A stretch of 63,903 nt of DNA, counting the filler, from Nemertoderma westbladi (Eukaryota; Animalia; Xenacoelomorpha), in NCBI GenBank assembly GCA_032718475.1. It is 3 parts of 3 records of this genome, joined end to end, with 100 filler letters (N's around TTAATTAATTAA, not from the genome) between each part and the next. Parts side by side here need not be neighbours in the genome. Positions count along the whole stretch, not along the records: positions 1 to 24,793 come from JAUCBJ010006057.1; 2 more parts are not named here. The stretch is one strand, 5' to 3'. Position numbers and translations under genes: made by a program. The notes under the pieces are model-generated. The model saw only the letters and a program-made list of their open reading frames with translations. It ran no database searches and had not been told where the DNA came from. The first letter of the stretch is position 1. Each line of letters begins with the position of its first letter. Below are positions 1,621 to 50,412 of this stretch, piece after piece.

Positions 1621-2902
1621 GATTTTGATCTATTTTCATTTGGACACACTGACAGACTGAAGGCCTAGGCCTACAGTACTATAAGCATAGGTGTATTCAA
1701 TCATTCAGAGTACCAGGTTAATACACCATGAACTGGAATATAGTGTCGTTATTCAGGTACCTGGCTGGACCCCCCCAAATTTTTCTGCAAATCTTTAATG
1801 AGATTGCATGAAATTTGAAACAGATTTAGTTTTATTTTTGGTTTCAATCTTTAGCTACAAGCGTTTGAAAAAGGTGTCTCCGGTGATATTTCACCAGTTA
1901 CACTGCAGTTATCATTGAAACTTATCCTGATTTATTGGTAACAAAAAACATTTCAATTTGGTTGGGAAATAAATAGGCGAGATATGGGCATTCTAATGTT
2001 GCATGCATTTGTTTCATATATGCAGGCCATTTATTCCATTTAATAAATAATACACCATATTCTAGAACATTTCGTTTATCCCATACATAGCTGGGCAACA
2101 TAGTAGAGCAGATTCATGTGTTTTTTTAGGCAGAATCATTCAGGTTGTGATACATGCATGAAATTTGGTACGAACGTTCCTTTTGGGGCAAAACAAGTGC
2201 TAGCCACTTGGAAATCAGACATGGCGGCCTCAAGAACACGTTTCCATGGTAACCAGTACTTAATATGACATTTAAAACCCTTCAACTTTGGTAGAGGATT
2301 CCAAAAAATTATTTACATACATTATGTGCAGTATATGGAAAAATATATGTTGAATATATAATTTTCATATAATTTGTATGTTTCCATGGCAAGTTCAAAT
2401 GTTTTTACATTTCTGGAATCCTTGCATGGTCAGCTTTCTATTGGTACCAACAAACCACGATAGGGTTCAAGAATAACTGCAGTGTAACTGGTGAAACAAT
2501 AAACGGAGACACCTTTTTTAAACGCTTGTAGCTAAAGATTGAAAGCAAAAATAAAAATTCTGGCTCACCCACGGAGGAGGAGGGTGGTTAAACTAAGAAA
2601 CTAACTCTGTTTTAAATTTCATGCTATCTCATTAAGATATGTAGAAAAATTGGGGGAGGGGGGGGGGGGGGGGGGTGGTCCAGGTTCCTGAACGACACTA
2701 TATTCCAGGACATGGTGGTTTTTTATTATTGATAGTAACAATGTGTTGGCAAGCTGTATTTTTCGAGGTGTTTGTTATTATACAATTATTATAGGAAGGG
2801 ATCTAGGGGTCTTAACCTCGAATGATAAGTATATTTTACCGAAAATAACTTATCTTTTATTGGCGCAATCTTTCACCTCGAGGTCCCAGGTTCGAATCCG
2901 AC

Positions 2903-2945
2903 ACCACGCTGATGAGACCCAGTAAGGTCGAAACGCGTACGTGGT
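2903..2945 (+). ncRNA. Type I hammerhead ribozyme, copy 1 of 7
   Basis: accacg-CTGATGA-gacc(cagtaa)ggtc-GAAA-cgcg-TA-cgtggt. Stem I accacg/cgtggt, stem II gacc/ggtc, minimal stem III, GUA cleavage triplet (predicted cut after 2939). Confidence 0.93.
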
Positions 2946-3250
2946 TTGGAGAGATATGAGATATTAATTTCAAGAAAAAATACGCGATTCCTAAATTTGT
3001 ACACTACCCGGTTAAAAAGTACGCATGTGATGGGATTAGTCCTACAATTGCGCCAATAAAAGATAAGTTATTTTCGGTAAAATATACTTATCATTCGAGG
3101 TTAAGACCCCTAGATCCCTTCCTATAATAATTGTATAATAACAAACACCTCGAAAAATACAGCTTGCCAACACATTGTTACTATCAATAATAAAAAATCA
3201 GGGGCTAATAAAATGGCAGCTGGCTTTGAAATTAATACTCCATATCTCAA

Positions 3251-3316
3251 GAACCTGTGGCCTAGTGGTTGTAGTCTCGGCTTTCACCTCGAGGTCCCAG
3301 GTTCGAATCCGACACC
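3251..3316 (+). promoter_or_regulatory. tRNA-Glu(TTC)-like Pol III internal promoter of the monomer (repeats every 411 bp, 6 full copies)
   Basis: A-box TGGCCTAGTGG 3258-3268, anticodon-arm-like ctcggCTTTCACctcgag, B-box GGTTCGAATCC 3300-3310. There is no intact acceptor stem, so this is not a tRNA gene. Confidence 0.85.
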
Positions 3317-3356
3317 ACGCTGATGAGACCCAGTAAGGTCGAAACGCGTACGTGGT
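3314..3356 (+). ncRNA. Type I hammerhead ribozyme, copy 2
   Basis: Same sequence as copy 1; CTGATGA at 3320; predicted cut after 3350. Confidence 0.93.
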
Positions 3357-3724
3357 TTGGAGAGATATGAGATATTAATTTCAAGAAAAAATACGCGATT
3401 CCTAAATTTGTACACTACCCGGTTAAAAAGTACGCATGTGATGGGATTAGTCCTACAATTGCGCCAATAAAAGATAAGTTATTTTCGGTAAAATATACTT
3501 ATCATTCGAGGTTAAGACCCCTAGATCCCTTCCTATAATAATTGTATAATAACAAACACCTCGAAAAATACAGCTTGCCAACACATTGTTACTATCAATA
3601 ATAAAAAATCAGGGGCTAATAAAATGGCAGCTGGCTTTGAAATTAATACTCCATATCTCAAGAACCTGTGGCCTAGTGGTTGTAGTCTCGGCTTTCACCT
3701 CGAGGTCCCAGGTTCGAATCCGAC

Positions 3725-3767
3725 ACCACGCTGATGAGACCCAGTAAGGTCGAAACGCGTACGTGGT
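3725..3767 (+). ncRNA. Type I hammerhead ribozyme, copy 3
   Basis: Same sequence; CTGATGA at 3731. Confidence 0.93.
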
Positions 3768-4135
3768 TTGGAGAGATATGAGATATTAATTTCAAGAAAA
3801 AATACGTGATTCCTAAATTTGTACACTACCCGGTTAAAAAGTACGCATGTGATGGGATTAGTCCTACAATTGCGCCAATAAAAGATAAGTTATTTTCGGT
3901 AAAATATACTTATCATTCGAGGTTAAGACCCCTAGATCCCTTCCTATAATAATTGTATAATAACAAACACCTCGAAAAATACAGCTTGCCAACACATTGT
4001 TACTATCAATAATAAAAAATCAGGGGCTAATAAAATGGCAGCTGGCTTTGAAATTAATACTCCATATCTCAAGAACCTGTGGCCTAGTGGTTGTAGTCTC
4101 GGCTTTCACCTCGAGGTCCCAGGTTCGAATCCGAC

Positions 4136-4178
4136 ACCACGCTGATGAGACCCAGTAAGGTCGAAACGCGTACGTGGT
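4136..4178 (+). ncRNA. Type I hammerhead ribozyme, copy 4
   Basis: Same sequence; CTGATGA at 4142. Confidence 0.93.
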
Positions 4179-4546
4179 TTGGAGAGATATGAGATATTAA
4201 TTTCAAGAAAAAATACGCGATTCCTAAATTTGTACACTACCCGGTTAAAAAGTACGCATGTGATGGGATTAGTCCTACAATTGCGCCAATAAAAGATAAG
4301 TTATTTTCGGTAAAATATACTTATCATTCGAGGTTAAGACCCCTAGATCCCTTCCTATAATAATTGTATAATAACAAACACCTCGAAAAATACAGCTTGC
4401 CAACACATTGTTACTATCAATAATAAAAAATCAGGGGCTAATAAAATGGCAGCTGGCTTTGAAATTAATACTCCATATCTCAAGAACCTGTGGCCTAGTG
4501 GTTGTAGTCTCGGCTTTCACCTCGAGGTCCCAGGTTCGAATCCGAC

Positions 4547-4589
4547 ACCACGCTGATGAGACCCAGTAAGGTCGAAACGCGTACGTGGT
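4547..4589 (+). ncRNA. Type I hammerhead ribozyme, copy 5
   Basis: Same sequence; CTGATGA at 4553. Confidence 0.93.
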
Positions 4590-4957
4590 TTGGAGAGATA
4601 TGAGATATTAATTTCAAGAAAAAATACGCGATTCCTAAATTTGTACACTACCCGGTTAAAAAGTACGCATGTGATGGGATTAGTCCTACAATTGCGCCAA
4701 TAAAAGATAAGTTATTTTCGGTAAAATATACTTATCATTCGAGGTTAAGACCCCTAGATCTCTTCCTATAATAATTGTATAATAACAAACACCTCGAAAA
4801 ATACAGCTTGCCAACACATTGTTACTATCAATAATAAAAAATCAGGGGCTAATAAAATGGCAGCTGGCTTTGAAATTAATACTCCATATCTCAAGAACCT
4901 GTGGCCTAGTGGTTGTAGTCTCGGCTTTCACCTCGAGGTCCCAGGTTCGAATCCGAC

Positions 4958-5000
4958 ACCACGCTGATGAGACCCAGTAAGGTCGAAACGCGTACGTGGT
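4958..5000 (+). ncRNA. Type I hammerhead ribozyme, copy 6
   Basis: Same sequence; CTGATGA at 4964. Confidence 0.93.
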
Positions 5001-5368
5001 TTGGAGAGATATGAGATATTAATTTCAAGAAAAAATACGCGATTCCTAAATTTGTACACTACCCGGTTAAAAAGTACGCATGTGATGGGATTAGTCCTAC
5101 AATTGCGCCAATAAAAGATAAGTTATTTTCGGTAAAATATACTTATCATTCGAGGTTAAGACCCCTAGATCCCTTCCTATAATAATTGTATAATAACAAA
5201 CACCTCGAAAAATACAGCTTGCCAACACATTGTTACTATCAATAATAAAAAATCAGGGGCTAATAAAATGGCAGCTGGCTTTGAAATTAATACTCCATAT
5301 CTCAAGAACCTGTGGCCTAGTGGTTGTAGTCTCGGCTTTCACCTCGAGGTCCCAGGTTCGAATCCGAC

Positions 5369-5411
5369 ACCACGCTGATGAGACCCAGTAAGGTCGAAAC
5401 GCGTACGTGGT
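5369..5411 (+). ncRNA. Type I hammerhead ribozyme, copy 7
   Basis: Same sequence; CTGATGA at 5375. Confidence 0.93.
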
Positions 5412-6199
5412 TTGGAGAGATATGAGATATTAATTTCAAGAAAAAATACGCGATTCCTAAATTTGTACACTACCCGGTTAAAAAGTACGCATGTGATGGG
5501 ATTAGTCCTACAATTGCGCCAATAAAAGATAAGTTATTTTCGGTAAAATATACTTATCATTCGAGGTTAAGACCCCTAGATCCCTTCCTATAATAATTGT
5601 ATAAGGACATGGTGGTGGTACTCTGAATGATTGAATAGGTATTTTACAATAGGAATTAGATTTTACAATAGGAATAGGAATTTTACAGTAGGCCTAGGCC
5701 TTCAGTGTTCATTTTTTAATCTACAGTAGGCCTACTTTATACATATTGTATAAACACCCCACAGCACTGTATTGTTCAAAGAACACATAACGTCTTAATA
5801 TCCTGTTACTGTATTTGTAGTGATTATTAGCAACTCCGTACCGGTATAATTAAGGGTTGTTATTGTAAAATAATAATCTACAGTGTGAGCAAATCACACA
5901 GGAAACATTGTTAATTAGACGCCTCTTCAGCGTGTGTAGAGGTCTGATTAATTTATTATCTTTACAAGAAAGCAAAAGATGGTATCACAACAGGCTTACA
6001 TTTAATTTTAATGCATGTATGAAAAATTCTGATTAGATTCTTTGTTTGTATAATATTATACTGTACCTCCTACTCGGCTGAGTTACGTTATTTGATCCTA
6101 GCTTCTTTCTCTTCTTCTTTTGGCATGTGGATATATTATATATATTAAAAATGAAATGCCGGCTTGTCAATAAAATTGCTCCGCCATAACACCTATGGC

Positions 6200-6426: not shown

Positions 6427-7170
6427 CCTACCTTCGGGTAGCAGATAGGAGTAGCGCCCACCCCTACCCTCAGGTAGCAGATAGGAGTAGCGCCCACCCC
6501 TACCCTCGGGTAGCAGATAGGAGTAGCGCCCACCCCTACCCTCGGGTAGCAGATAGGAGTAGCGCCCACCCCTACCCTCAGTAGCAGATGGGAGTAATGC
6601 GCACTCCTACCCTCGGGTAGCAGATAGGATTAGCGCGCACTCCTACCCTCGGGTAGCAGATAGGAGTAGCGCCCATCCCTTCCCTCAGTAGCAGATGGGA
6701 GTAGCGCGCACTCCTACCCTCGGGTAGCAGATAGGAGTAGCGCGCACTCCTACCCTCGGGTAGCAGATAGGAGTAGCGCCTACCCCTACCCTCGGGTAGC
6801 AGATAGGAGTAGCGCCTACCCCTACCCTCAGTAGCAGATAGGAGTATCGCCCACCCTTACCCTCGGGTAGCAGATAGGAGTAGCGCCCACCCCTACCCTC
6901 GGGTAGCAGATAGGAGTAGCGCCCACCCCTACCCTCAGTAGCAGATGGGAGTAATGCGCACTCCTACCCTCGGGTAGCAGATAGGATTAGCGCGCACTCC
7001 TACCCTCGGGTAGCAGATAGGAGTATCGCCCACCCCTACCCTCGGGTAGCAGATAGGAGTAGCGCCCACGCCTACCCTCGGGTAGCAGATAGGAGTATCG
7101 CCCACCCCTACCTCGGTTAGCAGATATCGAAAGAGGAGCCTTCGGGTCGCCTCCGGCTTCGACCAACTGC
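6427..7170 (+). repeat. 36-bp minisatellite derived from a SINE 3' region, ending in the SINE tail
   Basis: About 19 copies of taccctcgggtagcagataggagtagcgcccacccc, then tatcgaaagaggagccttcgggtcgcctccggcttcg. Both match 55209-55291. Confidence 0.9.
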
Positions 7171-10089: not shown

Positions 10090-11797
10090 AAGGATCACTT
10101 CGAGGAAATATCAACTGATGATGTTGCCAAGCTTATCAAAGATTCAAAACCTAGTCCAGTCCCCGTGATCCACTCCCTACACATATTGTGAAGCAATACC
10201 TTACAACTCTCTTAAGTGTCATTACAATGATAATTAATTTATCACTCACAACTGCTACATTTCCATCATTATTTAAAGAAGCTGTGCTCAATCCCATTAT
10301 CAAGAAGCTACGCCTTGACCCCGAGATACTGAAAAACTTTAGACCTGTTTCAAACCTCTTGTTCATTTCAAAGTTAGTTGAAAAAGCTGTTGCAAACCAA
10401 CTGATGCTCCATCTGAACTTACATAATCTACACGAGCCTATGCAAAGTGCCTATAGACCATTCCACGGAACCGAAACTGCATTCCTTAGGGTCAGCGATG
10501 AGATTCTGAGGGGAATTGATGATGGTTGTGCAGTACTGTTAGTAATGCTCGATCTCAGTGCTGCATTGGATACTGTCGAACACAGTATCTTATTAAATAC
10601 TCTGGAACATGAGATCGGCATTGCAGGGACAGCACTAGATTGGTTTCGATCCTACTTGTCGGGCCGCTCACAACAAGTACGCATTAACAACTCATATTCT
10701 CAACCTCAGCAATTAAGATACGGCCTCCCACAAGGATCAGTACTTGGCCTAATACTATTTACTATTTATACACGTTCACTCGCAAATGTGATAAGGAAAT
10801 ACGGACTGTCCCTACATCTCTACGCAGATGATACTCAAATATACATAACATTTAAGAAATCTAACCTGAATGATGCAGTGGATATCACTGAAAAGTGCCT
10901 TTCCGAAGATAAAAGATGAACTCAGATAAGACTAAAGTGGTCACGCTGCAGTCGCAATTCGGTAAACAAGTTGAATCCCCGCACGTGATAATCGGTTCCG
11001 AGACTATTGGTTGTAGCGCAACTGCGCGTAATATCGGTGTTGAAATCGATTCTCATCTGACACTCCGCAAGCACATTGGAATTACTGTCAGAGAAGCATT
11101 CTATCACCCCAGGAATCTTGGAAAAATTAAGCGCTATTTATCCAAAGATAATCTTGAGATTTTGATTCATGCGCTTGTCACTAGTAAATTGGAAAACTGC
11201 ACCTCCCTTTATTACGGTCTTCCGACTGTTTCCATTAAAAAGCTACAATATGTGCAGAACTGTGCGGCGCGTCTTTTAGTTGGTCTCAAGAAAAGTGACA
11301 GGCAACGAATGACCCCTGTACTAATGCGACTACACTACGTCGGATAGACTATAAAATTGCGCTATGATTACCTACTGTACAAGTGTCTAAATGGAACAGC
11401 ACCAGTATATCTGCGAGATCTACTGTCACCCTACACGCCCTCCCGGTCACTGAGGTCATCTCACTACGAACTGCTGGTGATCCCTAGATTCAACATGGTG
11501 CACTACGGCAAGCGCGCTTTCTCAGTTGTTGCCCCGACTATTTGGAACAAACTGCCAATCAACGTTCGACAATCACCAACCATCGCGGTTGTTAAGTCGA
11601 GGCTAAAAACACACTACTTCCACCTGGAGTACGAGTAAATCTGCATAATCATATTCACACGATGTTATCAATGTCCGTTTTTAATTAAACTGTTTTTATC
11701 TAATTTTTTAGCAATCCTACATTTTAACAGTGCCATGCGCCTTGCTCTTAATTTAGGAAAGGCGCTATATAAATATTTTAATTATTATTATTATTAA
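10090..11797 (+). mobile_element. 5'-truncated L2-clade LINE, RT pseudogene with frameshifts
   Basis: NFRPVSNL, QSAYR..H.TETA, LDLSAA(L)DTV, GLPQGSVLG, YADD, KRAFSVVAPTIWN. Frame breaks near 10916 and 11347. L2-type 3' end gcgcc...ggcgctatataaat followed by (att)n. Confidence 0.92.
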
Positions 11798-12417: not shown

Positions 12418-15400
12418 TTAATCTGACAGATTGTCACCGGGTCTTGGGTTAGCGATAACCCGCGACGGACCTGCCAGGCTATGGGGACCACAGCAGGTCG
12501 GATGCAGCAGTGGGTGATGGATGCTGGGTTGGATGTACCTATACCCGAGGCCACCGTAGTACGTAGCATTCCTAATAAACTTGTTGTTGATCCAGGATGC
12601 GGACTCAAAGCGATGTAATCTCTTCTGGGTACCAATCGGAAGCAACCCATAATTAATGAACCCTTCTGCTCTCGAATATGAAGGGCTTTGGGAAGGTAAA
12701 CCCGGAACGGGCAAGTTAATTCCCGACCTCAATTCAACATCAGTTGCTGGTAGCCTGTTGTTGAAGGGCTTTTCATTTTTAGCAGCGATTAAACTTAAAG
12801 CAGAGAACTTTATGCTTTTATGAGGCGGTTTAACATCATCGTCGTAGTGGCTGGTGTCTTTATATTTATCGGAATCGTCTCTTTTTAAGTTTTTCACTAA
12901 TTCTATGATGTGGGGGCCCTCGGTTGGACCTTCCTCATGGTACCGGCGTTTCACACCGCTATCCAATAAACGCATATCTCGATGCGCCAGACCTGTCTCC
13001 CTGAAGCCTTTAGCAAAGGGGTTGTAGTCGATCTTCAGTTGGGTTATCTAGAGTAGAAACAGTAAGTTGGTTGTTAGTTCATACGGTAATGTTGACAATC
13101 TGCTTTAAGTGTGATAGGCAATCTATTTAAATAAGGTTTCGGTTTGCAATCTACTTCAATGTGATTGGCAATTGACTGTATTTAGTTAAGGTTAACTATC
13201 TACTTAAATAAAGTTGGCAATCTACTTAGAGATAAAGTTGGCAATACAACGGTATATGATTGGCCATATCTACTTTAGAAATCCTTTATATACTGTATAT
13301 AATTCCAGTAGAATTTCGAACGAAAAGTGAAGGAAGACCTTGTATTCTTCACATGGGCGCCATATACTCTCGATAAAGTTAGCAAACTATTTAGATGCCG
13401 GTATGGTTGGCAATCTACTGAAATAAAGTTGACAATCTACTTTGATGTGATCAGCAATATACATAGATTCGGTTTGCAATGAACTTTGATACAGTATACA
13501 GTAATGATTATGTTTAAATTGTTATCTAATAGTTGTCTAATAGTCTATAGTTGTCTAATAGTTGTCTAATAGATTTGATATGATGATTATGATTAAGTTG
13601 GTAGTGTGAACGCGAACTTCGATTTTTTAATTAGCAATTTACTTCCATGGGTTTGCTTTAAAGGGTTAGCCTAGCCGTGAACGAAAGCAGTAGGCCTATT
13701 GAACATTCCCGGCACATCGTCGGTATCTACGTATTGGACTAAGATTACAAACCAAGATTATAATAGCAAGAACACATTGTTTGTTAAGATAACCTGTTTA
13801 AACGCCGCAGAAATATTTCTCACCAAAACTAACAGGATACAATAGATAAGTTTTTGCAACTGATATGCAGAGATTAATATCGATTCCCAACATACAGGAT
13901 TTAACAGTACCATCACCGGAAAGGTGGTGGTAGTTTCCCAACAAACAGGATTTAACAATTGACCTACCGGTAATGCGCCCGGAAAGGTGATGCCCAACTC
14001 ACTGATACGATTCTATCAAATCTGTGACCGAAATTTGTTTTATTAGGCCTATACTTTTGTTACGATAAAGAGCTACAGTTGCTGAGGAGTTTATCATTAA
14101 AGTTTAATGTATTTCCGGTGCATTGACTTATACCCCACCCAGATAATGAATGACCAACCTGTTCATTTTGGTAGGCAGTTACAGCAACGAACGAGGTTTC
14201 CGGGAACATATAGGAATGAAACGAGTCCCATTTGATTGAGTAAAGGTCGTTGGCCTCAACAATATGAAACCTAGGCTGGAATTTGTGCATTGAGTTTAAA
14301 ACAATCTAAAAATGACAGGGAAATAAAACAGGATTCGTAATTGGTAACGTAAAATGCAATACTATAAATTACCTATTATTGGCGATACCTGATGTATTAC
14401 TAACGGTATAGTACCTGTTTATTCTGGTTTTTGTGCAAATCCATTGATAATTTGCTAAACGGGATGAAAAGGATATTACTTGCCCGATCACAGAACCTGT
14501 CCACTTCTAATACACCATGATTTAGGTTTAATAGAAACTAGGTTTAGTCAGGTAGATTTATCATTTTATAGTTATAAGGTTCAAATTGAGTGGTTCGCTA
14601 TGTCTAACTATAAACTACCTATTACTAACTTACATGGCCCTGTCTATCCATGTTGTTGTTTGTCAGCTTCAATCGATTAAAAGCCACAACTTGATTCATC
14701 CAAGCCTCCCCGCTGCTGGGTGATTCGGGGTGAATGTATAATCTAAAAGAGTAAAAAAAGTCAAGTTGCCTCCGGACACTTGGCCAGGGAATGCGAAGAA
14801 ATGTGTTGAATGCGGTCCCCCTAGTACAATACTCCCTGGAGGAAATTGATTCTCATTTACTGGCCATTTAAGAATGTAATGCAAAGAGAATGAGCCCAGG
14901 CCATCCTTTTAAAGAATTCTTGCAGACATGAAAACTTCCCATAACTTTGAGCTCGTGCGGGGCTCGAACCCACGATCTTTGAAAAGAGTTGGGCTTAATT
15001 TAAATTAAGATGAAAGTTCATCGTCATGTAGTTTAGAGGGTGGGGTGGAGACAGTGATTGTGAGTTTACTTACCTGCCGATGGGCCGTGGTTCGGCCTTT
15101 CCTGACACCACCCAGTGGGAGTTATGGAATTTATATCGGCAGTCATCCATCGGCGCTAAATCCATCAACATTATGTAATTCTTGTGGGGCTCCAACCCAG
15201 TTATACTGACACGTATTGTTGGGAACATTCTTCTGCAATTACAAACTATGTTTTATTTCACTTCTGCGTATAAATCACAACTGTTATTCTCTCGAACCGT
15301 CACAGTAAAAATTATCGAAAGCAGATGTCTGGTTGTGATATTTGTGCGCAGCCTACTTTGTTTACAATTTATTGGCCATGGCCACTATTTTCGTGTGAAT

Positions 15401-24893: not shown

Positions 24894-26242
24894 TTAATTA
24901 TTATTACTCGATAAAGTTGAATTACTCATTTAAAACAACATAATGCTATAATAATTAATAATTATTTACCCCATGTGCCCGGGTGTATAACAATGTTAGT
25001 TATATAAAATATATACTGATTTATTAAAAATAAATAAATATAATAAATAATAAGTTTTCAAATTAAATATCATAATTCCCGTATTGTATGTTGCACCATA
25101 GACAATAGCAAACGAAAAGATACCTTTGTAAACATATTATATAGTTATATACAGTAGTTATGGTGTTTCTTGTCGCCTTAACATCTCTTAACCATTTTGA
25201 ACAACATCATGATATTTTGAGAGCACTGTTAGAGGCTGTTTTAATGTCAGATAGGGGGAGGGTGTCTTATTAATTCGCCGAGATGGAATTTGCATCCAGA
25301 CCCCCCCCCCCCCCCCCTCATCTCTAAAATATAAGAATGATTAATATTTATTCTCTCCCCCGTACTCGTAAGTCAGGTATTTTGTCTTTAAAGGTTAATG
25401 GGGGACGGGGGGGGGGGGGTGAGGTTGGTCATATTTTGTAGACCAAAAACAATTTTGAAATGTTTAGTTTAAGTTGTGTTTTGGGTCGATAATTTGAAAA
25501 GGTAAAATACAATATTTTGATTTTTTGGTTAAAATTGCACTTCTGATAAAAATTTCAAAATTCTGTCTTAAAGTTTTATTGGTCAATATGTCAAGACCAT
25601 TGACTGAAAAGTGGAAATTTGAAAGAAATTTTTCAAAAATGACGGAGTAGCATTTACATTGAAAATTATAAAATTTAAATAAGATTGGCGGGAAATTCAA
25701 ATTTAAATGTTTTCCTTAAAAATTATTAGAAGAACCAACTAATTTCAATGCATATTAAGCAACAACAGAACTGTTCTCTTTTAATCCTCTAAAAACTGGA
25801 GGTGTCTCCAAAACGTGAGCCACCCCCCCCCCCCCCCCTCCCCTTAACATTATAAATTAAAAAATATTTCGTAAAATAACATATCAAATGCTATATTAAT
25901 TCGTTGTCCAATTTCAGTTGCCGGTTTGTCCGTTCTGTAATCTTTATATAAAGTAGTCCAAGTTGATATCCATATTCGGTCATTAGAAATAAACCTGAAA
26001 GTAAAAAATAGTCCATAAATATATATTTAAGATACTGTAAATTATTTCATAATCATGATTTTTCATATCATCTTCCATCTTGTCACATTCATGTTATCAC
26101 TACTTTAGTTCCTGATAATGAATTGATTTTATTAATTGTAGGCCTTAATTAAATTGGCGTGGCGGTCGTCATTTGATTATTAAACAGTTTTACTTGTATA
26201 TATTAATTTTGTTTTAATAAATATAACTATTTTGTTGGGATA

Positions 26243-26998
26243 ATGAATTTTAATAAACATTTTGACATTCAAAAGAAGCAATCTTTATCAAAGACTGATT
26301 TATCTCGTAAAGAGGCTGTTGATTTTCGGATTGTAGATTTGGTTTCTAGTATCAACTCGAGTGTGGACTACTACACGACTAGTTCTTGTTCCGGTCGAGT
26401 TTACCTATTTAATCGCAACCCTTCCGGGAAGAAAGGGACTGTCTGGGTCTACGTCACCCACGATGTAGCTGATGCTGACCATATCGTGTCTGTATGTAAT
26501 AGCGCACTCGATCAAAAGGCTACCGGGTGTAATACTACCGAAAATTCAAACGATAATAAAATCGGAACTATCGCTGAACATGATTCCAGTGGCGTTGAAG
26601 ATTGTAGTAACGGATTATGTGCGTTGTCCTCCGATACTGCCGGGGAATTAACTGACAACTTCCCGTTGACTTTTAAGTTCGAAGCGTTCGTTATCCACGT
26701 GCAGTGTCGGAACGAGCGGGCGGCGTCGCGATTACTCGCCGCCGCGAACGGGGCCGGATTCCGTAACTCGGGGATCACTATCGGACGCGGCCCCAAATAC
26801 GGCGTCGCAATACGTAGCACAGCAGTCATGGAGACGCCACTGTCAGACAGCCTGGGCAATCGATTGGTTGGCAACGAATACGTTCGATATCTCGTCGCGA
26901 TCGCCAACTCTAAAATGGAAAGCAACTGGGAATCTACGGATCGTTTTATTAAAGGAGTTCTTCCTATTTTACATTCTACTTGCGAGACCGACACATAA
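26243..26998 (+). CDS. TYW3: tRNA wybutosine-synthesizing methyltransferase TYW3 (intronless)
   Basis: DLSRKxxVD, YYTTSSCSGR, WVYVTH, FKFEAFVIHVQCR, AGFRNSGI, VAIRST, LVGNEY, ANSKMESN motifs in the expected order. Confidence 0.93.
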   Translation: MNFNKHFDIQKKQSLSKTDLSRKEAVDFRIVDLVSSINSSVDYYTTSSCSGRVYLFNRNPSGKKGTVWVYVTHDVADADHIVSVCNSALDQKATGCNTTENSNDNKIGTIAEHDSSGVEDCSNGLCALSSDTAGELTDNFPLTFKFEAFVIHVQCRNERAASRLLAAANGAGFRNSGITIGRGPKYGVAIRSTAVMETPLSDSLGNRLVGNEYVRYLVAIANSKMESNWESTDRFIKGVLPILHSTCETDT

Positions 26999-27772
26999 AT
27001 ACAGTACCGAAAGGAACATAATGTGAATTTATCTGTGAATAAATATTAAACTTAGTATTTTAGTGTTAATTTTAAGAGACAGGGGACAGGGAGGGGGTGG
27101 GGACTGCAACCTAGATATTCTATCTAATTAATATTTATTTTCAATGTTAAATATCAATTTAGGGAATGAAGGATGGGGAATGGGAATGGTTCCATGAATG
27201 GAATGGCACGTTATTCAAACCAAAACAATAAACGAAACTCAATGGTACAGGTTACAGATTCAAACTCAATTTACAACTCAATAACACTAAAACAACTAGC
27301 TACTGTAGGTATGCGACGTTCTGGTACATTTCATACATGAGCTGCTACAATAGAATCACTTTTATTTGTTATATTTTTTCATAAGAAGAAAAATGCGCGG
27401 CGCGTTAAACATTAGTTTTTTTTAAATAAACTTAGAAAATATGTCAATAAATTAAATGAGAGAGCAAATTTTCCTTTGACAATAAATCTATTAATTCAGT
27501 AGAACAATTTGGAAAATAATCACAATTACACAGTGTTATTTATGTGATTGGGAGACAGGCGTTATCGTCGGAAGATAAATTCTGCCCGTTTGTGCATAAC
27601 TCGTACCAACCTAAATCTGTCTTGGTTGTCAGTTGGGGTTGGGGGAAGGGCAGAGGGGAATTAGTCATTGGTAGATCATCCGGTAGTTACAGTTTATAGG
27701 TCCAGGGTAGAGAACAAGATAATCGGTCCAGGACGCAGGAGGGTAGATAACGGGGTAGTTTTATTGTAAGGC

Positions 27773-30715
27773 AGTCGGTTCGGGAACAAAACTGGTAGTC
27801 AGTCGGTTCGGAATTAAAACTGGTAGTCAGTCGGTTCGGGATAAAAACTGGTAGTCAGTCGGTTTGGGATAAAACTGGTAGTCAGTCGGTTCGGGAACAA
27901 AACTGGTAGTCAGTCGGTTCGGGATAAAACTGGTAGTCAGTCGGTTCGGGATAAAACTGGTAGTCAGTCGGTTCGGGATAAAACTGGTAGTCAGTCGGTT
28001 CGGGATAAAAACTGGTGTCAGTCGGTTCGGGAACAAAACTGGTAGTCAGTCGGTTCGGGATAAAACTGGTAGTCAGTCGGTTCGGGATAAAAACTGGTGT
28101 CGGTCGGTTCGGGGTAAAAACTGGTAGTCAGTCGGTTCGGGGTAAAAACTGGTAGTCAGTCGGTTCGGGATAAAACTGGTAGTCAGTCGGTTCGGGATAA
28201 AACTGGTAGTCAGTCGGTTCGGGATAAAAACTGGTGTCAGTCGGTTCGGGATAAAAACTGGTAGTCAGTCGGTTTGGGATAAAACTGGTAGTCAGTCGGT
28301 TCGGGAACAAAACTGGTAGTCAGTCGGTTTGGGACAAAAACTGGTAGTCAGTCGGTTCGCGGTAAAAACTGGTAGTCAGTCGGTTCGGGATAAAACTGGT
28401 AGTCAGTCGGTTCGGGATAAAAACTGGTGTCGGTCGGTTCGGGATAAAAACTGTTAGTCAGTCGGTTCGGGATAAAAACTGGTAGTCAGTCGGTTTGGGA
28501 CAAAAACTGGTAGTCAGTCGGTTCGCGGTAAAAACTGGTAGTCAGTCGGTTCGGGATAAAACTGGTAGTCAGTCGGTTCGGGATAAAAACTGGTGTCGGT
28601 CGGTTCGGGGTAAAAACTGGTAGTCAGTCGGTTCGGGGTAAAAACTGGTAGTCAGTCGGTTCGGGAACAAAACTGGTAGTCAGTCAGTCGGTTCGGGATA
28701 AAACTGGTAGTCAGTCGGTTCGGGATAAAACTGGTAGTCAGTCGGTTCGGGATAAAAACTGGTGTCAGTCGGTTCGGGATAAAAACTGGTAGTCAGTCGG
28801 TTTGGGATAAAACTGGTAGTCAGTCGGTTCGGGGTAAAAACTGGTGTCAGTCGGTTCGGGATAAAAACTGGTAGTCAGTCGGTTTGGGATAAAACTGGTA
28901 GTCAGTCGGTTCGGGATAAAACTGGTAGTCAGTCGGTTCGGGATAAAAACTGGTGTCAGTCGGTTCGGGATAAAAACTGGTAGTCAGTCGGTTTGGGATA
29001 AAACTGGTAGTCAGTCGGTTCGGGAACAAAACTGGTAGTCAGTCGGTTTGGGACAAAAACTGGTAGTCAGTCGGTTCGCGGTAAAAACTGGTAGTCAGTC
29101 GGTTCGGGATAAAACTGGTAGTCAGTCGGTTCGGGATAAAACTGGTAGTCAGTCGGTTCGGGATAAAACTGGTAGTCAGTCGGTTCGGGATAAAAACTGG
29201 TGTCAGTCGGTTCGGGATAAAAACTGGTAGTCAGTCGGTTCGGGAACAAAACTGGTAGTCAGTCGGTTCGGGATAAAACTGGTAGTCAGTCGGTTCGGGA
29301 TAAAACTGGTAGTCAGTCGGTTCGGGATAAAAACTGGTGTCAGTCGGTTCGGGATAAAAACTGGTAGTCAGTCGGTTTGGGATAAAACTGGTAGTCAGTC
29401 GGTTCGGGAACAAAACTGGTAGTCAGTCGGTTTGGGACAAAAACTGGTAGTCAGTCGGTTCGCGGTAAAAACTGGTAGTCAGTCGGTTCGGGATAAAACT
29501 GGTAGTCAGTCGGTTCGGGATAAAAACTGGTGTCGGTCGGTTCGGGATAAAAACTGTTAGTCAGTCGGTTCGGGATAAAAACTGGTAGTCAGTCGGTTTG
29601 GGACAAAAACTGGTAGTCAGTCGGTTCGCGGTAAAAACTGGTAGTCAGTCGGTTCGGGATAAAACTGGTAGTCAGTCGGTTCGGGATAAAAACTGGTGTC
29701 GGTCGGTTCGGGGTAAAAACTGGTAGTCAGTCGGTTCGGGGTAAAAACTGGTAGTCAGTCGGTTCGGGAACAAAACTGGTAGTCAGTCGGTTCGGGATAA
29801 AACTGGTAGTCAGTCGGTTCGGGATAAAACTGGTAGTCAGTCGGTTCGGGATAAAAACTGGTGTCAGTCGGTTCGGGATAAAAACTGGTAGTCAGTCGGT
29901 TTGGGATAAAACTGGTAGTCAGTCGGTTCGGGGTAAAAACTGGTGTCAGTCGGTTCGGGATAAAAACTGGTAGTCAGTCGGTTTGGGATAAAACTGGTAG
30001 TCAGTCGGTTCGGGGTAAAAACTGGTGTCGGTCGGTTCGGGATAAAAACTGTTAGTCAGTCGGTTCGGGACAAAAACTGGTAGTCAGTCGGTTCGGGATA
30101 AAAACTGGTGTCGGTCGGTTCGGGGTAAAAACTGGTAGTCAGTCGGTTCGGGGTAAAAACTGGTAGTCAGTCGGTTCGGGAACAAAACTGGTAGTCAGTC
30201 GGTTCGGGATAAAACTGGTAGTCAGTCGGTTCGGGAACAAAACTGGTAGTCAGTCGGTTCGGGATAAAACTGGTAGTCAGTTGGTTCGGGATAAAACCGG
30301 TAGTCAGTCGGTTCGGGATAAAAACTGGTGTCAGTCGGTTCGGGATAAAAACTGGTAGTCAGTCGGTTTGGGATAAAACTGGTAGTCAGTCGGTTCGGGG
30401 TAAAAACTGGTGTCGGTCGGTTCGGGATAAAAACTGTTAGTCAGTCGGTTCGGGATAAAAACTGGTAGTCAGTCGGTTTGGGACAAAAACTGGTAGTCAG
30501 TCGGTTCGCGGTAAAAACTGGTGGTCAGTCGGTTTGGGATAAAAACTGGTAGTCAGTCGGTTCGGGATAAAAACTGGTGTCGGTCGGTTCGGGATAAAAA
30601 CTGTTAGTCAGTCGGTTCGGGATAAAAACTGGTAGTCAGTCGGTTTGGGATAAAATTGGTAGTCAGTCGGTTCGGGGTAAAAACTAGTACCGGTCTGCCG
30701 GTAGTCTGTCGGTTC
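27773..30715. repeat. 27-28 bp minisatellite (ggtagtcagtcggttcgggataaaact), about 105 copies
   Basis: Directly visible; variant blocks recur. Confidence 0.97.
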
Positions 30716-37611: not shown

Positions 37612-38178
37612 ACTACTAGTACTACTACGATCAGCATGAGGTATTGCAGCTGCATTATATATATATATATATATATATTACATATATATTAAGAATGCTG
37701 TGCCGACAAAATTGTGCCTCCACAACTCCCTAGTACCCATTACATTTGCTAGATCATCCGCATCTTCAAGGCCAGTGTCCTTTAAGATACGTCTAAAGAA
37801 TGTCATGGGTTGTCCACCATTCTTATTCACTCCATGAGGCCGCCAACGCACAAGATTATGCAACGGCTGGTCCTCACGGCGAAAGCAATATCCTGCAAAG
37901 CGGAGGCGGTTCCGTTCAATTGTCAAGCTAGGGGAGACTAATGGAACACCTCCAATGTTGTATAAAGTCTGATTGGAGATGTATTCATTGTACTTGACAC
38001 AATAAACCCGGCGCAACATTCTTGTGAATGTGCCATCCAGAGATTTGGTATCCTCTGCAGTTAGAGCCCAGCATGGACTCCCATATAAGAGTACTGTTAC
38101 TACTACTGCCATAAATAATCGAACCTTAAGGTTCTGTTTTATTCTATGGGACTTCCAAATCCTGGACAGACTATTTAA
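37612..38178 (-). mobile_element. RTE-clade LINE 3' fragment
   Basis: VLLYGSPCWALT, LDGTFTRMLRR, RLRFAGYCFR; family 3' end atgcagctgcaat...tagtag. Confidence 0.9.
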
Positions 38179-39135
38179 CTCCTACAACTAAACTTATTAA
38201 CTTGTTATGTAGATTAGTTCTCATAAACTAGGGGTTGTGTGGGATCTCTATGAACCGTAGGTGTTTGTAGAGGATCAGACATGAAGTAATTCCGGGTTTT
38301 AGATAATTCTTATATCGTTTAGTAAGTTTTGAGTTTAACATGAGGAGTTTATAAGTAGTAAATATTACGAAATATTAAACATCTAAACACCCATACAATT
38401 TGATAGATTATTTAATAATATTTGTAAATTCTCTTAAGTATAGATTGTGTACACGTACCAATAATGTTGTTTTAACAGGCTCACCTTCCGGGTTTTAATC
38501 CAACTCAAACTCCCTTATACTACATATTGCATATAGGCTATATATGGTATTATTTACTATATTTTCCTACTTATTTGTGTCGACAAATAGGTAAATATGG
38601 ACGGATAAACACAACGTTATATTTATGACGAGACGGTTTATGGCGGCTTCATACCAGTTTTAAAAACTTATATACAGTAGTTCATATAACAAAACTTTCG
38701 GATTAGCACACTCACTAAAAGAGCTACATGACACACGAATTTGCCAATTGGGTTGGTGCGCGAAATTTTTTGAGCTAGAAACAATCGAATAAGGGGTAAT
38801 AAGTTGCCCTGAAGTGACGGGGTTTGTTATTTGTAAAAACACCTGGAAACGGTCGCAAGGGCGGGTTTAAGTGAGCGCGGGGAGTCAATTTTTAAAATCG
38901 GCTGTGATTGGCTGCTACATATTTGACGTCATTACGCAGTGCTCTGATAATTTTTTATCTTGGTTTCTATGGAGAGAGATTTTCGATCAAATTCAAATAC
39001 ACATTAAATCACAATTATTTCACACGTGGCTTATATCAATTGAAGCAGAGAGTCTTGTGCGTCTTTTGATACTAAAATTAATTAAATTCATGATGGGGAA
39101 GATTTAATGGGTGGTCAAAATTTATGTGAGTACCT

Positions 39136-39530
39136 TTCCTGATGACCTTTCTGGGTCACAAAGGGAGACCAGATTGTGAGGGGGAGAGGGATTCTGGAGT
39201 TGGAGACTACTCTCATGTTCCACCCCGACCCAGCAAGACATTGGTTAACCAGAGGCAAATCACTGAGTTGCATTGGTCTATTGATGAATCAAACTGCACA
39301 TGCGCAGCATTGGAGAAAATAGACCAAATCTCAAACCGCATCATTCATTACCACTTCCTGCACTGGAAGTCTGGCTAAGAAATTTCCTAAAGTGGTTCTG
39401 ATTGTGTGATGATTCAACCAATAGTGTTGCTCCATTAGCGGAAGAGGTGGAAAATCTCTACAACAATACAAGTAGATACTGATCAGTCATTCTTAATATT
39501 CCTGGGAGACCTTTATTCAAGTCTAAATCA
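39136..39530 (+). mobile_element. RTE 5'/endonuclease fragment with internal deletions
   Basis: Matches 43837-43975 and 44220-44465 (GRPDCEGERDSGVG). Confidence 0.8.
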
Positions 39531-40092
39531 GTCATTTCTATAGCGTTAGTGTTAAGGGGACCATTACCCCCAAAGGAAGTCAATTTTTTATCTGTTTTAG
39601 TAGTTTGATAGAAGGTATTTCATGTGGTGACACTGGTTTTCACCATAGAGTTATTTTATCACCACAAAACAGCACTTTTCAAAATTTAAAATTTATTAAA
39701 TTTTGTATTTTCTTTTTTATATACAAAAATTTTGAAATTTTTTGGAAAATTTTAGCAAATTTCAATATATTTCATAGTTAAAATATGAAAAATTAAAATT
39801 ACCTCATGGAACGGCAGAGTCAGAAAAGGCTCATACTATTTGCGATTTTATGTTATATTAAAGAAGATTATCCAGTTCAAAGAATTGAACTGGAAAGATA
39901 GACTCATATATTGGGGACCAAGTGGTCACAAGTTCCAGATACTACTGTACTACTGTAATCGGCCTTCCACATTGAAACTGCACATTTACATAGATGCTAT
40001 GCCAGCTTAACTAAAACATTTTGTCACCATCATGCAATCCACAATTGGCAAGCCCAATGCAACGAGCATAAATAATGCTATATCAACACAAC

Positions 40093-40210
40093 TCCCTATC
40101 CCCCATGACTGTCGCGAGATTATCCGCATCTTCAAGGCCAGTGTCCTTTGGGAGGCGTCTTACGAAAAGCGAAAAAAAGGGTTCTTGTGTCAAGCTTGGG
40201 GGAACCTACG
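40093..40210 (-). mobile_element. Short RTE 3' fragment
   Basis: ctccctatcccccatgac...atccgcatcttcaaggccagtgtcctt matches the other copies. Confidence 0.7.
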
Positions 40211-40323
40211 GATCCCGGGAAGGGACATGAAAAAAAAATTTTTCTAACACGAGGCCTAGTGTTAGCTAACACGAGCCTTCGTGGTAGCTAAAACCGTTCG
40301 GTCTATGTAGGCCTACTGTATAA

Positions 40324-41073
40324 GCGGTTGCATAGATGGGTTTTCATGGAAGATTTTGTTCTTAGAAGTTTATAAAACCAATAACAACCCAAAAATTATT
40401 GGTGGCTATTTAGTATCTCGCCTTGGTGGATGCCCTTTAATGGTCAGGGCAAACTACGGAACTGAAAATACCTACATGAGAAGCTTTCAGATGTTTTTCC
40501 GCCGCAATTAATTGCACTGATGGCTTGGTAATCCGGGCGTATACAGACGGGCGCAGTACGGCAAATCAAAGAATCGAGAGTTGGTGGGGGGTTCTTCGGA
40601 AGGAGAACGCGCAGTTGTGGATAGAATTATTTAAAGAATTGCAGGCAGAAGGTATCCTCCCCGGAGACTTTGTTTCAAAGGCTGCTGTTCAGTTATGTTT
40701 TACTTCACTAATTCAAAACGAACTAGACACATTAGCATCAGTTTGGAACCACCATCTTATTCGTCCTTCTGGAAATCCCAACGTTCCAAGCGGCCGATCT
40801 AATATTATGTATAGTTCGCCTAGCCTCTACCGTTGTGCTACCAAACAGCTCTTAACCGTAGCGCCTTCTGAAATTAATACCTGCTGCTCCAACGACTTAT
40901 TCCGCTTATCTATACCTTGTGATGCCGATCTGTGCATTCAGTTAATGCGTGAGAAGAACCTCCGACGTCCTCTATCCGTAGACGACGCCGTGGAACTTTA
41001 TCTCATCCTTCATAATGCAATTCGCGAACTTCTTGGAAACAACGTAGACGATAGGTATACTAAGTCAGATTAA
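40324..41073 (+). pseudogene. DDE integrase-core transposase remnant (IS3EU-like eukaryotic DNA transposon)
   Basis: GCIDGFSWKILFLEVYKTNNNPKII (~40325-40400), VRANYGTEN, GRSTANQRIESWW, WNHHLIRPS...PSGR; frameshifted and 5'-truncated. Confidence 0.8.
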
Positions 41074-41094
41074 CTAATTATTATAGTTGAGTAT

Positions 41095-41255
41095 GATGTA
41101 GGTGTTGAACTGCGATGTTGATCCGTATGTCAAAGCCACCTTAGCAAAGAGTCAGCGCTCTATTATGGCGCAATTCCGTTGTGGAGTACTCCCGCTTGCT
41201 GTTGAATCTGGGCGATTTAAATGTAAGCCGCTAGAGGAATGAGTATGTGAAGTGT
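41095..41255 (+). mobile_element. LINE ORF2 C-terminal fragment (pre-zinc-knuckle region)
   Basis: QRSIMAQFRCGVLPLAVESGRFKCKPLEE*VCEV resembles the R.G..PL.IE.GR...EER.C motif. Confidence 0.6.
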
Positions 41256-41409
41256 TAATTAATAATTTACATACCAACAAAGTCCTGGAGATAATCCCTC
41301 CAATAGGTTAGCATTGCGTTGCCACCGAATCGAACCTTGCTCTGACCACTGCACTTCAAATAGCTGTTCAACAATAGTGGCGTCAAGTTCACACTTTGAG
41401 TAAACGAGT

Positions 41410-43220
41410 CCCCATCCCCCATGATTTTCGCGGGATTATACGCATCTTCAAGGCCAGTGTCCTTTAGGAGGCGTCTCACAAAAGTCAACTACTAGGATCG
41501 GCATGCTGCATTGCAGCTGCATTTTTAAGAATGCTGTGCCGGCTTGTCAACAAAATTGCACCGCCACAACTCCCTATCACCCATGACATTTGCTAGATCA
41601 TCCGCATCTTTAAGGCCAGTGTCCTTTAAGATGCGTCTCAAGAAAGTCATGGGCTGTCCACCATGCTTATTCACTCCATGAGGCTGCCAAAGTACAAGAT
41701 TATGCACTGGCTGGTCCTCACGGCGAAAGCAATGTCCTGCAAAGCGGAGGCGATTTTGTTCTAGTGTCAAGCTTGGGGGAACCAATGAGACACCTCCAAT
41801 GTTATATAGTGCCTGGTTGGAGATGTGTGCATTGTACTTGACACAATGAACCCGGCGTAGCATTCTTGTGAATGTGCCATCCAGAGATTTGGTGTCCTCA
41901 GCAGTTAGAGCCCAGCATGGACTCCCGTAGAGGAGTACTGGAACTACTGCTGCTCTAAATAATCGGACCTTAAGTTTCCGATTAATTCTCGGTGACTTCC
42001 AAATCCTGGAAAGCCTATTCAAGGCTGCCCATGCCTTTCCCTTACGTATTCGAAGGTCCTCACCTGACTTCCGGATCCATGATCCCAGGTAACAGAAGTC
42101 ACGAAAGTCAAGGCTATCCACCATGCTTATTTTCTCCTTGAAGCCGTCAAAGCACAATATTGTGAACAGGCTGGTCCTCACGGAGAAAACAATGTCTTCC
42201 AAAGCGGAGGCGGCTTTGTTCTAGTTTCAAGCTTGGGGGAACCAATGAGACACCTCCAATGTTATATAGTGTCTGGTTGGAGATGTATGCATTGTACTTG
42301 ATACAGTGAACCCGGCGTAGCATTGTTGTGAATCTGCCATCCAGAGATTTGGTGTCCTCAGCAGTTAGAGCCCAACATGGATTCCCATACTAGGATCGGC
42401 ATGCTGCATTGCAGCTGCAATTTTAAGAATGCTGTGCTGGATTCCCATAGAGGAGTACTGGAACTACTGCTGTTCTAAATAATCGGACCTTAAGTTTCAG
42501 ATTAATTCTATGTGATTTCCAAGTCCTGGAAAACCCATTCAAGGCTGCCTATGCCTTTCCCTTACGTATTCGAAGGTCCTCACCAGACTTCCGGATCCAT
42601 GATCCCAGGTAACAGAAGTCGCCCACATGCTCAAGCATACCATCCTTTGAGCTTATGCTCATCCGGTCAGACACATGCTGATGACTATCAAAGTTAACTG
42701 TCGAAATTTCGTTTTTTTTTTGAGTTAACAAAAAGACCAACTCTAAAAGCAGCATGTTATATTGTGCTGTGGAGCCGTTGGACTCCCTCTAGTGATTATG
42801 AGCCTAGTGATTATTAAGTCATCAGCAAAGTCTTGATCAGTTTCTGGAGCCAGTCGTAGGTGGAGTTACCATCACCTCATCATTATTATGATCTAGATAG
42901 ACCATATGGACTATCTGTACTTGTTACCACTGGGTCCAGTATGAGTCCATAACTGACCAGTTCGCTTAAATAAAGAATATTATTATGTTTCGAAGAAAAT
43001 ACAGGAGCTCTGTTGAAGACTACTGCATTTACACATCGACCCTTCTCCATAGGGATCACCGCTCAGTGGAGTGCATTCAAATTGGAGATGTGGATTCCAC
43101 CCTAATCCTGACCAGCCATTACCACCGCCTGATCAGGCCATATACCCCTGCAGCTAAGTATATGGGTCCTTAACCCAGAACCATGAACGTCCTTATAATA
43201 GGTCAGGTAAGGTATTCTAA
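41410..43220 (-). mobile_element. Rearranged RTE LINE copies (repeated 3' ends plus a 5' UTR fragment)
   Basis: DFCYLGSWI, DLRIRKGKAWAALNRL; 3' terminus present at ~41490 and ~42390; 43104-43200 matches the 5' UTR at 43345-43441. Confidence 0.88.
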
Positions 43221-43339
43221 TTCATTGATCAAGAAAACTTGCCACCTCCATGCAGCATAAAGGTAGTGCCACCTGTATCTGCATAGACCCTCTTACTAGG
43301 GCAAATCTGGTCCTGTAACTAGGACCCCCTTCGTTCTGG

Positions 43340-49105: not shown

Positions 49106-50412
49106 CCGTATTTATATACCTTTGCTGTAAATCTCTTGCAAATATCGACATGAACATCCCAGAACAAATTAAGTAAATTATAGTCAATCGCAGTGCCGAA
49201 GTCATAATTCCAGGAAGTTGCTTTTAAACCTATGGATGTTTTATAGGATAAGGTAATTAATTATTAATCTTCTTGTTAATTATAATATATTAGCAGACAG
49301 TTAGTCACGGCGAAATACAGTAGATTATGCAATTTACCGTCAATTACTATCTGAAATTTATACAATGATTATTATCGTGACTTTAAGAATTTCTAAGTAC
49401 CAGCACACTCTATAATGATCAGAGATAAACATTCACTACTTTGATTTAATCCAATCTGATACTTTGGCTGCCCGACGTTATATATTTTATTCACCTACTG
49501 TAGACACATAGACTCATGACTATTTTGCACATCTGTCACATATCAGTCAGTATGAGTCACCACCAACAACTACTTTGTTCATATTCACATGGTGTGCCTC
49601 AATAAAATTCCAATTATATGTTATAATATAAATAGTACAGCGCAAGTATATGAGCTAATGTTGATCTACTTGGTCGAAATCCGTTTTGGCTCTTATGTAG
49701 CTGTTTCTATATGTGAGGCCTAATTCTAATCCATAATTTTATTGTATATTTTGGCAGCTACCACAAGCAGACAGATCACACGATAGTTTGTTGGTATACC
49801 GAAGTCTCCTTTCCTGGGGAGAGGCTTTAGTTGACTTTTATTCCGAATTGGCATCTTTGCCTACTCTATAGATACGACCCTCCAAGCTTCTGCAAAGCCC
49901 CTAAATTTAGTGGGCCAGTTATTTCTCTCAGTTAGAATCCCTGAAACAATATATATAAAGACTCGAAAGTGCTTGTCCCTAACTAAGATTTTGTCCTCGT
50001 TTCAGATGAGACAAATAAAAATTTTATAGCTCCTGTAGTTTTCGAGATATGAGATGTTCCTAGCACCCATCCATACAAGTTGTATCGTGATCAGCGACCT
50101 TGAAATCCAGTGTAGCTTCAGAAACTTTGAAACTTTGATAGTTTCTAATTATTTGCTACTTGTACTTTTCGTTGTGGAGGACCAAAATAGCACAAAAAAT
50201 GATGGTTGCATCGCCAGGAAATATTTTTAACAAGTTTTATCGTGATCAGATCTCGGACGCCCACCAGTCGCACAAACAAATCCCCAGCCGAATTTCCCAC
50301 AGTAGGACCCCTGATTCTTGGCTGATGGGATAAACGAGACCAGGGTGAGAGAACCACGTGGTAGTTGATGGAATCGAATCAGTTAGTTGTGCGGACAGAA
50401 TCCGCATTCTCC

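Follow-up and report, generated by a model that had tools for sequence, protein, structure and literature searches.

A young hammerhead-bearing tandem insertion in Nemertoderma westbladi with a Penelope-type footprint and a possible RNA-circle template

In a 63.9-kb window of the Nemertoderma westbladi genome (GCA_032718475.1; the window is the whole stretch of DNA analysed, and all positions refer to it), a 411-bp unit is tandemly repeated, preceded by an inverted partial copy and enclosed by a 13-bp target site duplication (TSD). We interpret this arrangement as a young insertion of an animal retrozyme without long terminal repeats (LTRs), likely made in one step by the reverse transcriptase (RT) and endonuclease of a Penelope-like element (PLE) and probably copied from a 411-nt RNA circle; taken as a whole, this interpretation has in our view about an even chance of being right. 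Its parts differ in strength. A single event of PLE type seems quite probable, and on geometric and genetic grounds we lean slightly towards a circular template.

The two copies of the TSD, at 2707..2719 (+) and 5604..5616 (+), are the only occurrences of this 13-mer on both strands of the window, and the identity does not extend to either side. The last base of the left copy also fits the inverted piece, and the first base of the right copy, 5604, is compatible with both the unit and the TSD. The chance of a given 13-mer being repeated in this way is about 1e-8, or about 1e-6 with 100 boundary offsets allowed. An older foldback-like element serves as host (1656..5706, unstranded; arms at about 1656-1950 and at 2441-2717 plus 5616-5706), and its right arm is interrupted by the insertion. 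The left arm of this host aligns to both flanks of the insertion and contains the target site once, serving as a proxy for the empty site; thus, the 13-bp repeat is a genuine duplication. Positions 5194-6150 were also compared with the contigs of four out of eight sequencing runs (X1-X4), of which X1, X2 and X3 are DNA runs from two samples (X2 and X3 share one, and X1 is possibly the source of the window). One contig in each of X1, X2 and X3 spans the right junction, with no alternative letters. No empty allele was seen among the contigs listed, which is no proof of fixation. The host itself has imperfect long inverted arms (73-96% identity in aligned blocks), measures about 1.15 kb without the insertion and has no second copy in the window.

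Between the TSDs there are only tandem and inverted repeats, and no LTR. The inverted piece (2720..2869, -) is a 5'-truncated unit copy which matches 3047-3196 at 150 of 150 positions and covers nt 108-257/258 counted from the cut site. The forward array (2870..5604, +) was delimited by repeat analysis and comprises 6.65 × 411 bp: 70 nt (nt 342-411), six whole cut-to-cut units and 198/199 nt (nt 1-198/199). It begins in the predicted anticodon loop of a tRNA-like head, so that the B box is included and the A box is not, and it ends 198-199 nt beyond the last predicted cut (after 5405). The right end lacks poly(A), and a tail of poly(A) or simple repeats is missing from both ends of the insertion. 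Across the forward array only two substitutions were found, at 3807 (a CpG change) and at 4761. The array and the inverted piece meet 5' end to 5' end with zero common letters at the joint. As the inverted copy stands at the left, both ends abutting the TSDs are 3' ends of the RNA-sense strand, and the inverted piece reaches about 59 nt beyond the 3' end of the forward array, forming a one-sided "tail". Overlap with the target amounts to 1 nt at the right and 1 nt at the left (4 nt if a G-U pair is counted). The target is roughly symmetric (2702-2719, 5617-5621), both inferred nicks reading T/GG(T or A)A, a pattern that cleavage by a dimeric nuclease might leave; this is a single site and the symmetry may be due to chance. 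A preliminary description of this locus had already recognized the 13-bp repeat around the whole insertion, the array start in the middle of the tRNA head at 2870, and the end about 200 nt past the last cleavage site without poly(A), all of which hold. It had also placed 6.65 forward monomers inside one TSD; the number is confirmed, but the 150-bp inverted copy had been overlooked. Its proposal of a single target-primed event is supported by the TSD, the head-to-head inverted copy and the near identity of the units.

The unit is non-coding and has 39% GC. The stretch 2940..3350 (+), running from one predicted cut to the next, represents one unit and would correspond to the predicted 411-nt monomer or circle; its fold beats 100 of 100 dinucleotide shuffles (z -4.4), and its circular fold gives z -3.9. 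A type I hammerhead motif, exemplified by 3304..3371 (+), recurs every 411 bp, with predicted cuts after 2939, 3350, 3761, 4172, 4583, 4994 and 5405 (2939 + 411n). The core motif is present in all seven units and helices I-III fold, helix I being predicted at 6+4 bp, helix II at 4 bp, and helix III at 2 bp and palindromic. The Rfam model Hammerhead_HH9 matches with 26.6 bits (E 2e-4), under its gathering score of 52, and at gathering level Rfam gives zero matches. Two copies are predicted to co-fold through the helix III palindrome, and the same palindrome-mediated arrangement is described for dimer-dependent animal hammerheads (PMC4209133). All seven cut-site junctions in the array are seamless, with no base gained or lost.

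Box search and ARAGORN place the tRNA-like head at 3255..3321 (+), with an A box at 3258-3268 and a B box at 3301-3309, the latter overlapping the 5' arm of the hammerhead. An equivalent pair of boxes arose in 1 of 200000 shuffles. ARAGORN calls the head only at a relaxed threshold (ps80), not at default, and there is no Rfam tRNA match to the unit. Selection against terminators of RNA polymerase III (Pol III) was considered as a property of the unit and rejected: there is one run of four T (T4) in the sense strand versus seven on the other strand, and 51% of 2000 shuffles have equally few (P 0.51).

By every sequence test that was run, the element falls into the known class of retrozymes, with self-cleavage and circularity predicted: it is a non-coding tandem within the 150-1000 bp size range, with GC below 50%, a hammerhead in at least two consecutive units, a TSD longer than 4 bp, no LTR, and a dispersed distribution. 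Animal non-LTR retrozymes, as described (PMC7229834; 10.64898/2026.07.22.740005), likewise are non-coding tandems of about 400 bp with GC below 50%, a type I hammerhead per unit, TSDs longer than 4 bp, up to about seven units, and a proposed circle-templated insertion by PLEs. There are two differences. The unit has an A/B-box head, whereas in a review retrozymes are said to seem promoterless (PMC7761336), and a PLE-type footprint complete with inverted copy, tail and two end clusters was not seen in the retrozyme descriptions consulted. The A and B boxes in a tRNA-like head are also those of a tRNA-derived short interspersed element (SINE); however, instead of a single unit with a fixed 3' end and a poly(A) or tail like that of a long interspersed element (LINE), we find a permuted multimer with two end clusters. 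A close parallel here is with the SINE-like repeats Sm-alpha and Sj-alpha of Schistosoma, which combine a tRNA-derived repeat with a hammerhead in thousands of copies (PMC2770079); Sm-alpha-like elements are reported as derived from tRNA-Gln, while the present head is too decayed to assign. This comparison is by description only. Sm-alpha is transcribed by Pol III.

The unit belongs to a dispersed multi-copy family, with many distinct flanks in X1-X3. Summed contig depth of the unit against the flank, at 5339, is about 6,300-, 7,300- and 10,300-fold, which is a measure of abundance and not of copy number. Ends of other copies were taken from contigs that align only in part (340, 355 and 332 contigs); the statements below refer to the 18 loose ends listed out of 629 and to the 15 joints listed out of 46. 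Contig ends at 5604 (13, 13 and 17 contigs) were excluded, being mostly the unit continuing past the edge of the compared stretch, and joints from 5604 to 5194 were read as unit-to-unit continuity only. Of the 12 entries listed on the 3' side, seven form clusters; the remaining five (three at 5604 and two short ones) were excluded, and all of them continue the unit. The 3' loose ends gather at 5593-5596 (24 and 7 contigs in X1, 12 in X2, 23 in X3) and at 5246-5247 (9 contigs in X1, 16 and 7 in X2), among the listed ends. Uniformly distributed ends predict about 0.8 contigs per place, and the Poisson probability of the observed clusters is 1e-12 or less. The clustered ends carry long, mixed flanks. 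They correspond to unit nt 188-191 and 252-253, about 60 nt apart, each directly after a CTAT(C)AATAA motif, and thus mark off a stretch in which 3' ends preferentially fall and RT likely starts, at 3127..3197 (+) in the array. The ends of the insertion itself (nt 198/199 and 257/258) lie 7-11 and 4-6 nt beyond the family clusters. On the 5' side, the six listed ends are scattered, with 1-2 contigs at each place. We conclude that the clustered 3' ends are preferred, rather than fixed.

These data alter the argument for a circular template. The preliminary description had read two features as fitting a circle, namely the lack of any relation between the 3' end and the cut site and the fractional number of copies, but a fixed internal start combined with a random 5' stop gives a permuted, non-integer array on any template, linear ones included. 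It had also set a test beforehand, according to which random end phases in other copies would support a circle; the phases turned out not to be random, the 3' ends falling into two clusters, and this line of support is ruled out.

The same data do point to the machinery of PLEs. Their insertions are described as incomplete tandems next to which stands a 5'-truncated copy in inverted orientation; one end has a tail of 30-40 bp, and the TSDs measure 8-10 bp (PMC8557442, PMC3846280; for PLE curation see PMC8969392). The anole PLE protein cleaves both strands and extends them, initiating reverse transcription at two sites inside the RNA; it needs no target homology and prefers ATT targets (PMC11167929). 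Here, we likewise find a tandem with an inverted 5'-truncated copy, a one-sided tail and a TSD, together with preferred internal 3' ends at two nearby sites (among the listed ends); priming near two family start sites from two target ends would account for the 59-nt tail. The endonuclease-bearing PLEs Pen2a_Av and anole Poseidon PAc, as far as they are described, thus resemble the insertion in the head-to-head tandem and inverted 5'-truncated copy, the one-sided tail, the TSD, the internal RT start and the priming of both strands. They differ in that the present element has no open reading frame (ORF), its hammerhead is canonical and not minimal, its tail measures 59 nt versus 30-40, its inverted junction lacks palindrome or overlap, and its target is not AT-rich; the likeness is one of architecture.

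Another route to a head-to-head structure would be a LINE insertion by L1-type twin priming, or else RT jumps end to end between cleaved linear monomers, and we regard this pair of explanations as quite improbable. Both processes, template jumping and twin priming, have been described in non-LTR elements (PMC2912911), twin-priming inversions sharing with our insertion two cDNAs from two target ends joined head to head in one TSD, and LINE RT fragments are present in the window. However, all seven cut-site junctions are free of added or lost bases, and jumps between molecules would likely import majority letters. A poly(A) or simple-repeat tail is absent from both ends, the two primings are internal unlike those of L1, and the unit shows no similarity to the rest of the window, LINE fragments and ends included. 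The LINE candidates would presumably be L2/CR1- or RTE-like. L1 twin priming begins at a T-rich nick of L1 type, and there is no such nick at this insertion. Inversions are furthermore described as rare in trans-mobilised SINEs (PMC2912911). Spread at the DNA level, by amplification and reinsertion of an excised DNA circle, or a partial assembly artefact seems least probable of all. DNA circles have been proposed for satellite reinsertion (PMC8490949, which also notes one W-element TSD), and contig support is confined to the right junction. Yet the right junction was found in three runs, and 3' ends clustered on one strand sense, a truncated inverted copy placed head to head and a clean TSD fit reverse transcription.

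As for the template, the argument begins with geometry. The shortest conceivable forward piece (70+198 nt) already crosses a cut site, and since every form of the insertion does so, a linear monomer that had been cut could have served as template only if the RT jumped. The genetic part comes from letters that are unlike the family majority in the comparison with X1-X3, located at 5339, 5446 and 5551 (5339..5551, +) and at every 411 bp upstream. The window letters at 5339 and 5551 make up at most 0.03-0.21% of family depth, and all seven units carry all three letters. Only two unit-specific changes were found in 2735 nt, both singletons. From the rare letters in seven of seven units and from these two changes it follows that the array went through a bottleneck of one unit very recently. 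Of the three positions, the inverted piece covers only 5551 and has the array's letter there (at 2831), so the variant was already in the template when the inversion formed. A bottleneck of one unit is what a circle template produces, while a linear template must pass seven hammerheads uncut. Relative to the flank, the depth of the private letters is 2.8, 13.9 and 14.9 (5339) and 6.8, 25.2 and 5.2 (5551), with 7-8 expected from the locus alone, which excludes a large private subfamily. The forward array starts at a phase 3 nt away from the private letter 5339, which itself belongs to the predicted anticodon loop of the head.

It is also conceivable that a short insertion grew in place by unequal crossing-over or slippage, although we consider this improbable. 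Growth of this kind is the standard model for satellites (discussion in 10.64898/2026.07.22.740005) and would explain the array-wide private letters without 6.65 turns. The preliminary description had named unequal crossing-over as a source of copy number; as a means of expansion it is possible, but alone it is insufficient, as at least 1.65 units are needed at the start. Such a starter crosses the cut site twice and thus still requires a circle or an uncut multimer. Moreover, no change is common to a subset of units (0 of 2, of low power; by a rough coalescent estimate, gradual growth would give the two-singleton pattern with a chance of about 0.17), and the insertion is very young, as judged from two changes in 2735 nt and a perfect TSD.

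The favoured course of events, from a circular template, would be as follows. Pol III would start at the A/B-box head of one unit and read through its lone T4 run into the next. Two successive hammerheads would release a 411-nt monomer, and a host ligase would circularise it, as the motif and related retrozymes suggest. A PLE protein would then cut both target strands 11-13 nt apart, and each target 3' end would prime reverse transcription at one of two preferred internal RNA sites. Two cDNAs, of 6.65 units and 150 nt, would be joined 5' to 5' inside the 13-bp TSD, and this product is the one observed.

Several points weigh against this course of events. In the 64-kb window, no PLE was found among ten long ORFs scanned and no GIY-YIG-like motif in six frames. 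The target is not an AT-rich ATT, both nicks being at T/GG (at one site; the ATT preference is known for one PLE clade), and the 59-nt tail exceeds the 30-40 nt described. The scarcity of T runs in the unit is non-significant (P 0.51), and the letter at 5446, a minority letter at 4-7% of depth, is confounded by an indel allele. Others bear on the circle itself and speak for an alternative in which the same PLE-type insertion was copied from an uncut linear transcript of at least seven units, whose source was a parent array both young and uniform. Linear RNA also permits internal priming, and the tested anole PLE used uncut RNA, its main substrate in vitro (PMC11167929). A hammerhead with a weak, 2-bp palindromic helix III is described as a poor cutter alone (PMC4209133); in vitro, eight of nine frog retrozyme dimers remained uncut and one was cut (10.64898/2026.07.22.740005), and multimeric retrozyme RNAs (dimers, trimers) are reported in axolotl (PMC7229834). 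Within one unit, 84 nt separate the 3' end of the inverted piece from the forward 5' end downstream of it, as twin priming on a single linear molecule predicts, and a second primer would presumably find a long linear RNA easier to use than a circle wrapped in cDNA. The depth of the private letters is still compatible with one parent array. That array, however, must be fixed for the same rare letters, which only shifts the single-unit bottleneck one step back; at 2.8-25x flank depth the letters are in at most a few arrays, and the transcript would have to pass seven hammerheads and seven T4 runs. We treat the linear multimer as rather unlikely, though the most serious of the alternatives. The wider picture, in which a self-promoting retrozyme has a tRNA-derived promoter overlapping its ribozyme, and its 411-nt circle is copied in a rolling manner by PLE enzymes from two target ends, each array being fixed for the mutations of one RNA, we offer tentatively, at somewhat less than an even chance.

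The class of the element and the model of PLE action on circles are already known, the latter as a hypothesis since 2014-2020: retrozyme circles, ligation by RtcB, TSDs longer than 4 bp and tandem cDNA made by PLEs from the circle make up the published model (PMC7229834, PMC7761336, PMC4209133). A 2026 preprint ties retrozymes to PLEs by co-occurrence and by similarity to the PLE pseudo-LTR (pLTR), but calls the mechanism unresolved and favours local tandem amplification (10.64898/2026.07.22.740005). In the freely accessible main-text literature we found no study that maps the ends of retrozyme insertions to the PLE signature or that uses array-private letters. Three things are new: a promoter-bearing head that overlaps the ribozyme, a PLE-type footprint in complete form, and a genetic test of the circle model. 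The locus displays a PLE signature at the level of junctions on a retrozyme and, if our interpretation is correct, would be one of few pieces of genomic evidence for a mechanism that has until now been a proposal. It also opens a direct test, namely whether each TSD-flanked array has private letters of its own that are uniform throughout, and thousands of young units in one species bring this within reach of a single long-read assembly. The A/B-box head would also account for the rebuilding of a working source from an insertion that is permuted but contains at least two units. Should the wider picture given above hold, private letters and PLE-type ends would together constitute a genome-wide record of circle-templated retrotransposition that names its helper.

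Among other family copies, strand-switch joints appear in 2 of the 15 listed joints, in phases differing from those of this insertion, and an inverted loose end of the unit occurs at 5526 in X1 and X2. A joint in X2 and X3 omits 84 nt (5515-5598, unit nt 110-193) at depths of 3761 and 1721, likely a 327-bp unit variant without the first 3'-end cluster. Run X4, labelled as a different organism and taken for RNA by guess only, contains a single contig, 441 nt long, which runs round the unit past its start; it has the majority letters, four differences and no flank. As evidence for an RNA circle it was discounted, a DNA tandem or trace carry-over giving an equal result. A sediment metagenome (X7) contains 5% of the unit words of 5194-5604. 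The unit sequence in X4 and X7 may stem from carry-over, environmental DNA or a related host. An exact 26-nt pattern had zero matches in metagenome and prokaryote collections, and a B-box-plus-hammerhead pattern had zero viral matches and four metagenome ones, near a rough chance estimate, none of them tandem and none with more likeness to the unit than one 24-nt match. Outside the runs compared, no sequence relatives of the unit were found.

Elsewhere in the window, further satellites have periods of 36 bp (6427-7126), 40 bp (47140-49120) and 37 bp (50414-52953), and no hammerhead core was seen in these three. LINE RT fragments lie in the regions 10155-10919, 61006-63762 and 37678-45480, one of them a frame of 918 aa that matches RT and, weakly, an endonuclease. 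The region 37.7-45.5 kb holds several near-identical LINE-like pieces in both orientations, which we take to be RTE-like, and an integrase-core fragment is present at 40480-41073. About 7 kb from the insertion, an open frame at 12418-13047 (-) opens with the terminal part of a T-box-like domain, for which TBX3 is the best match in the PDB (E 0.003), and is probably a last exon. A TYW3 methyltransferase is encoded at 26207-26998 (+) in one uninterrupted frame (Pfam E 2e-48), adjoining a 27-bp satellite at 27772-30689.

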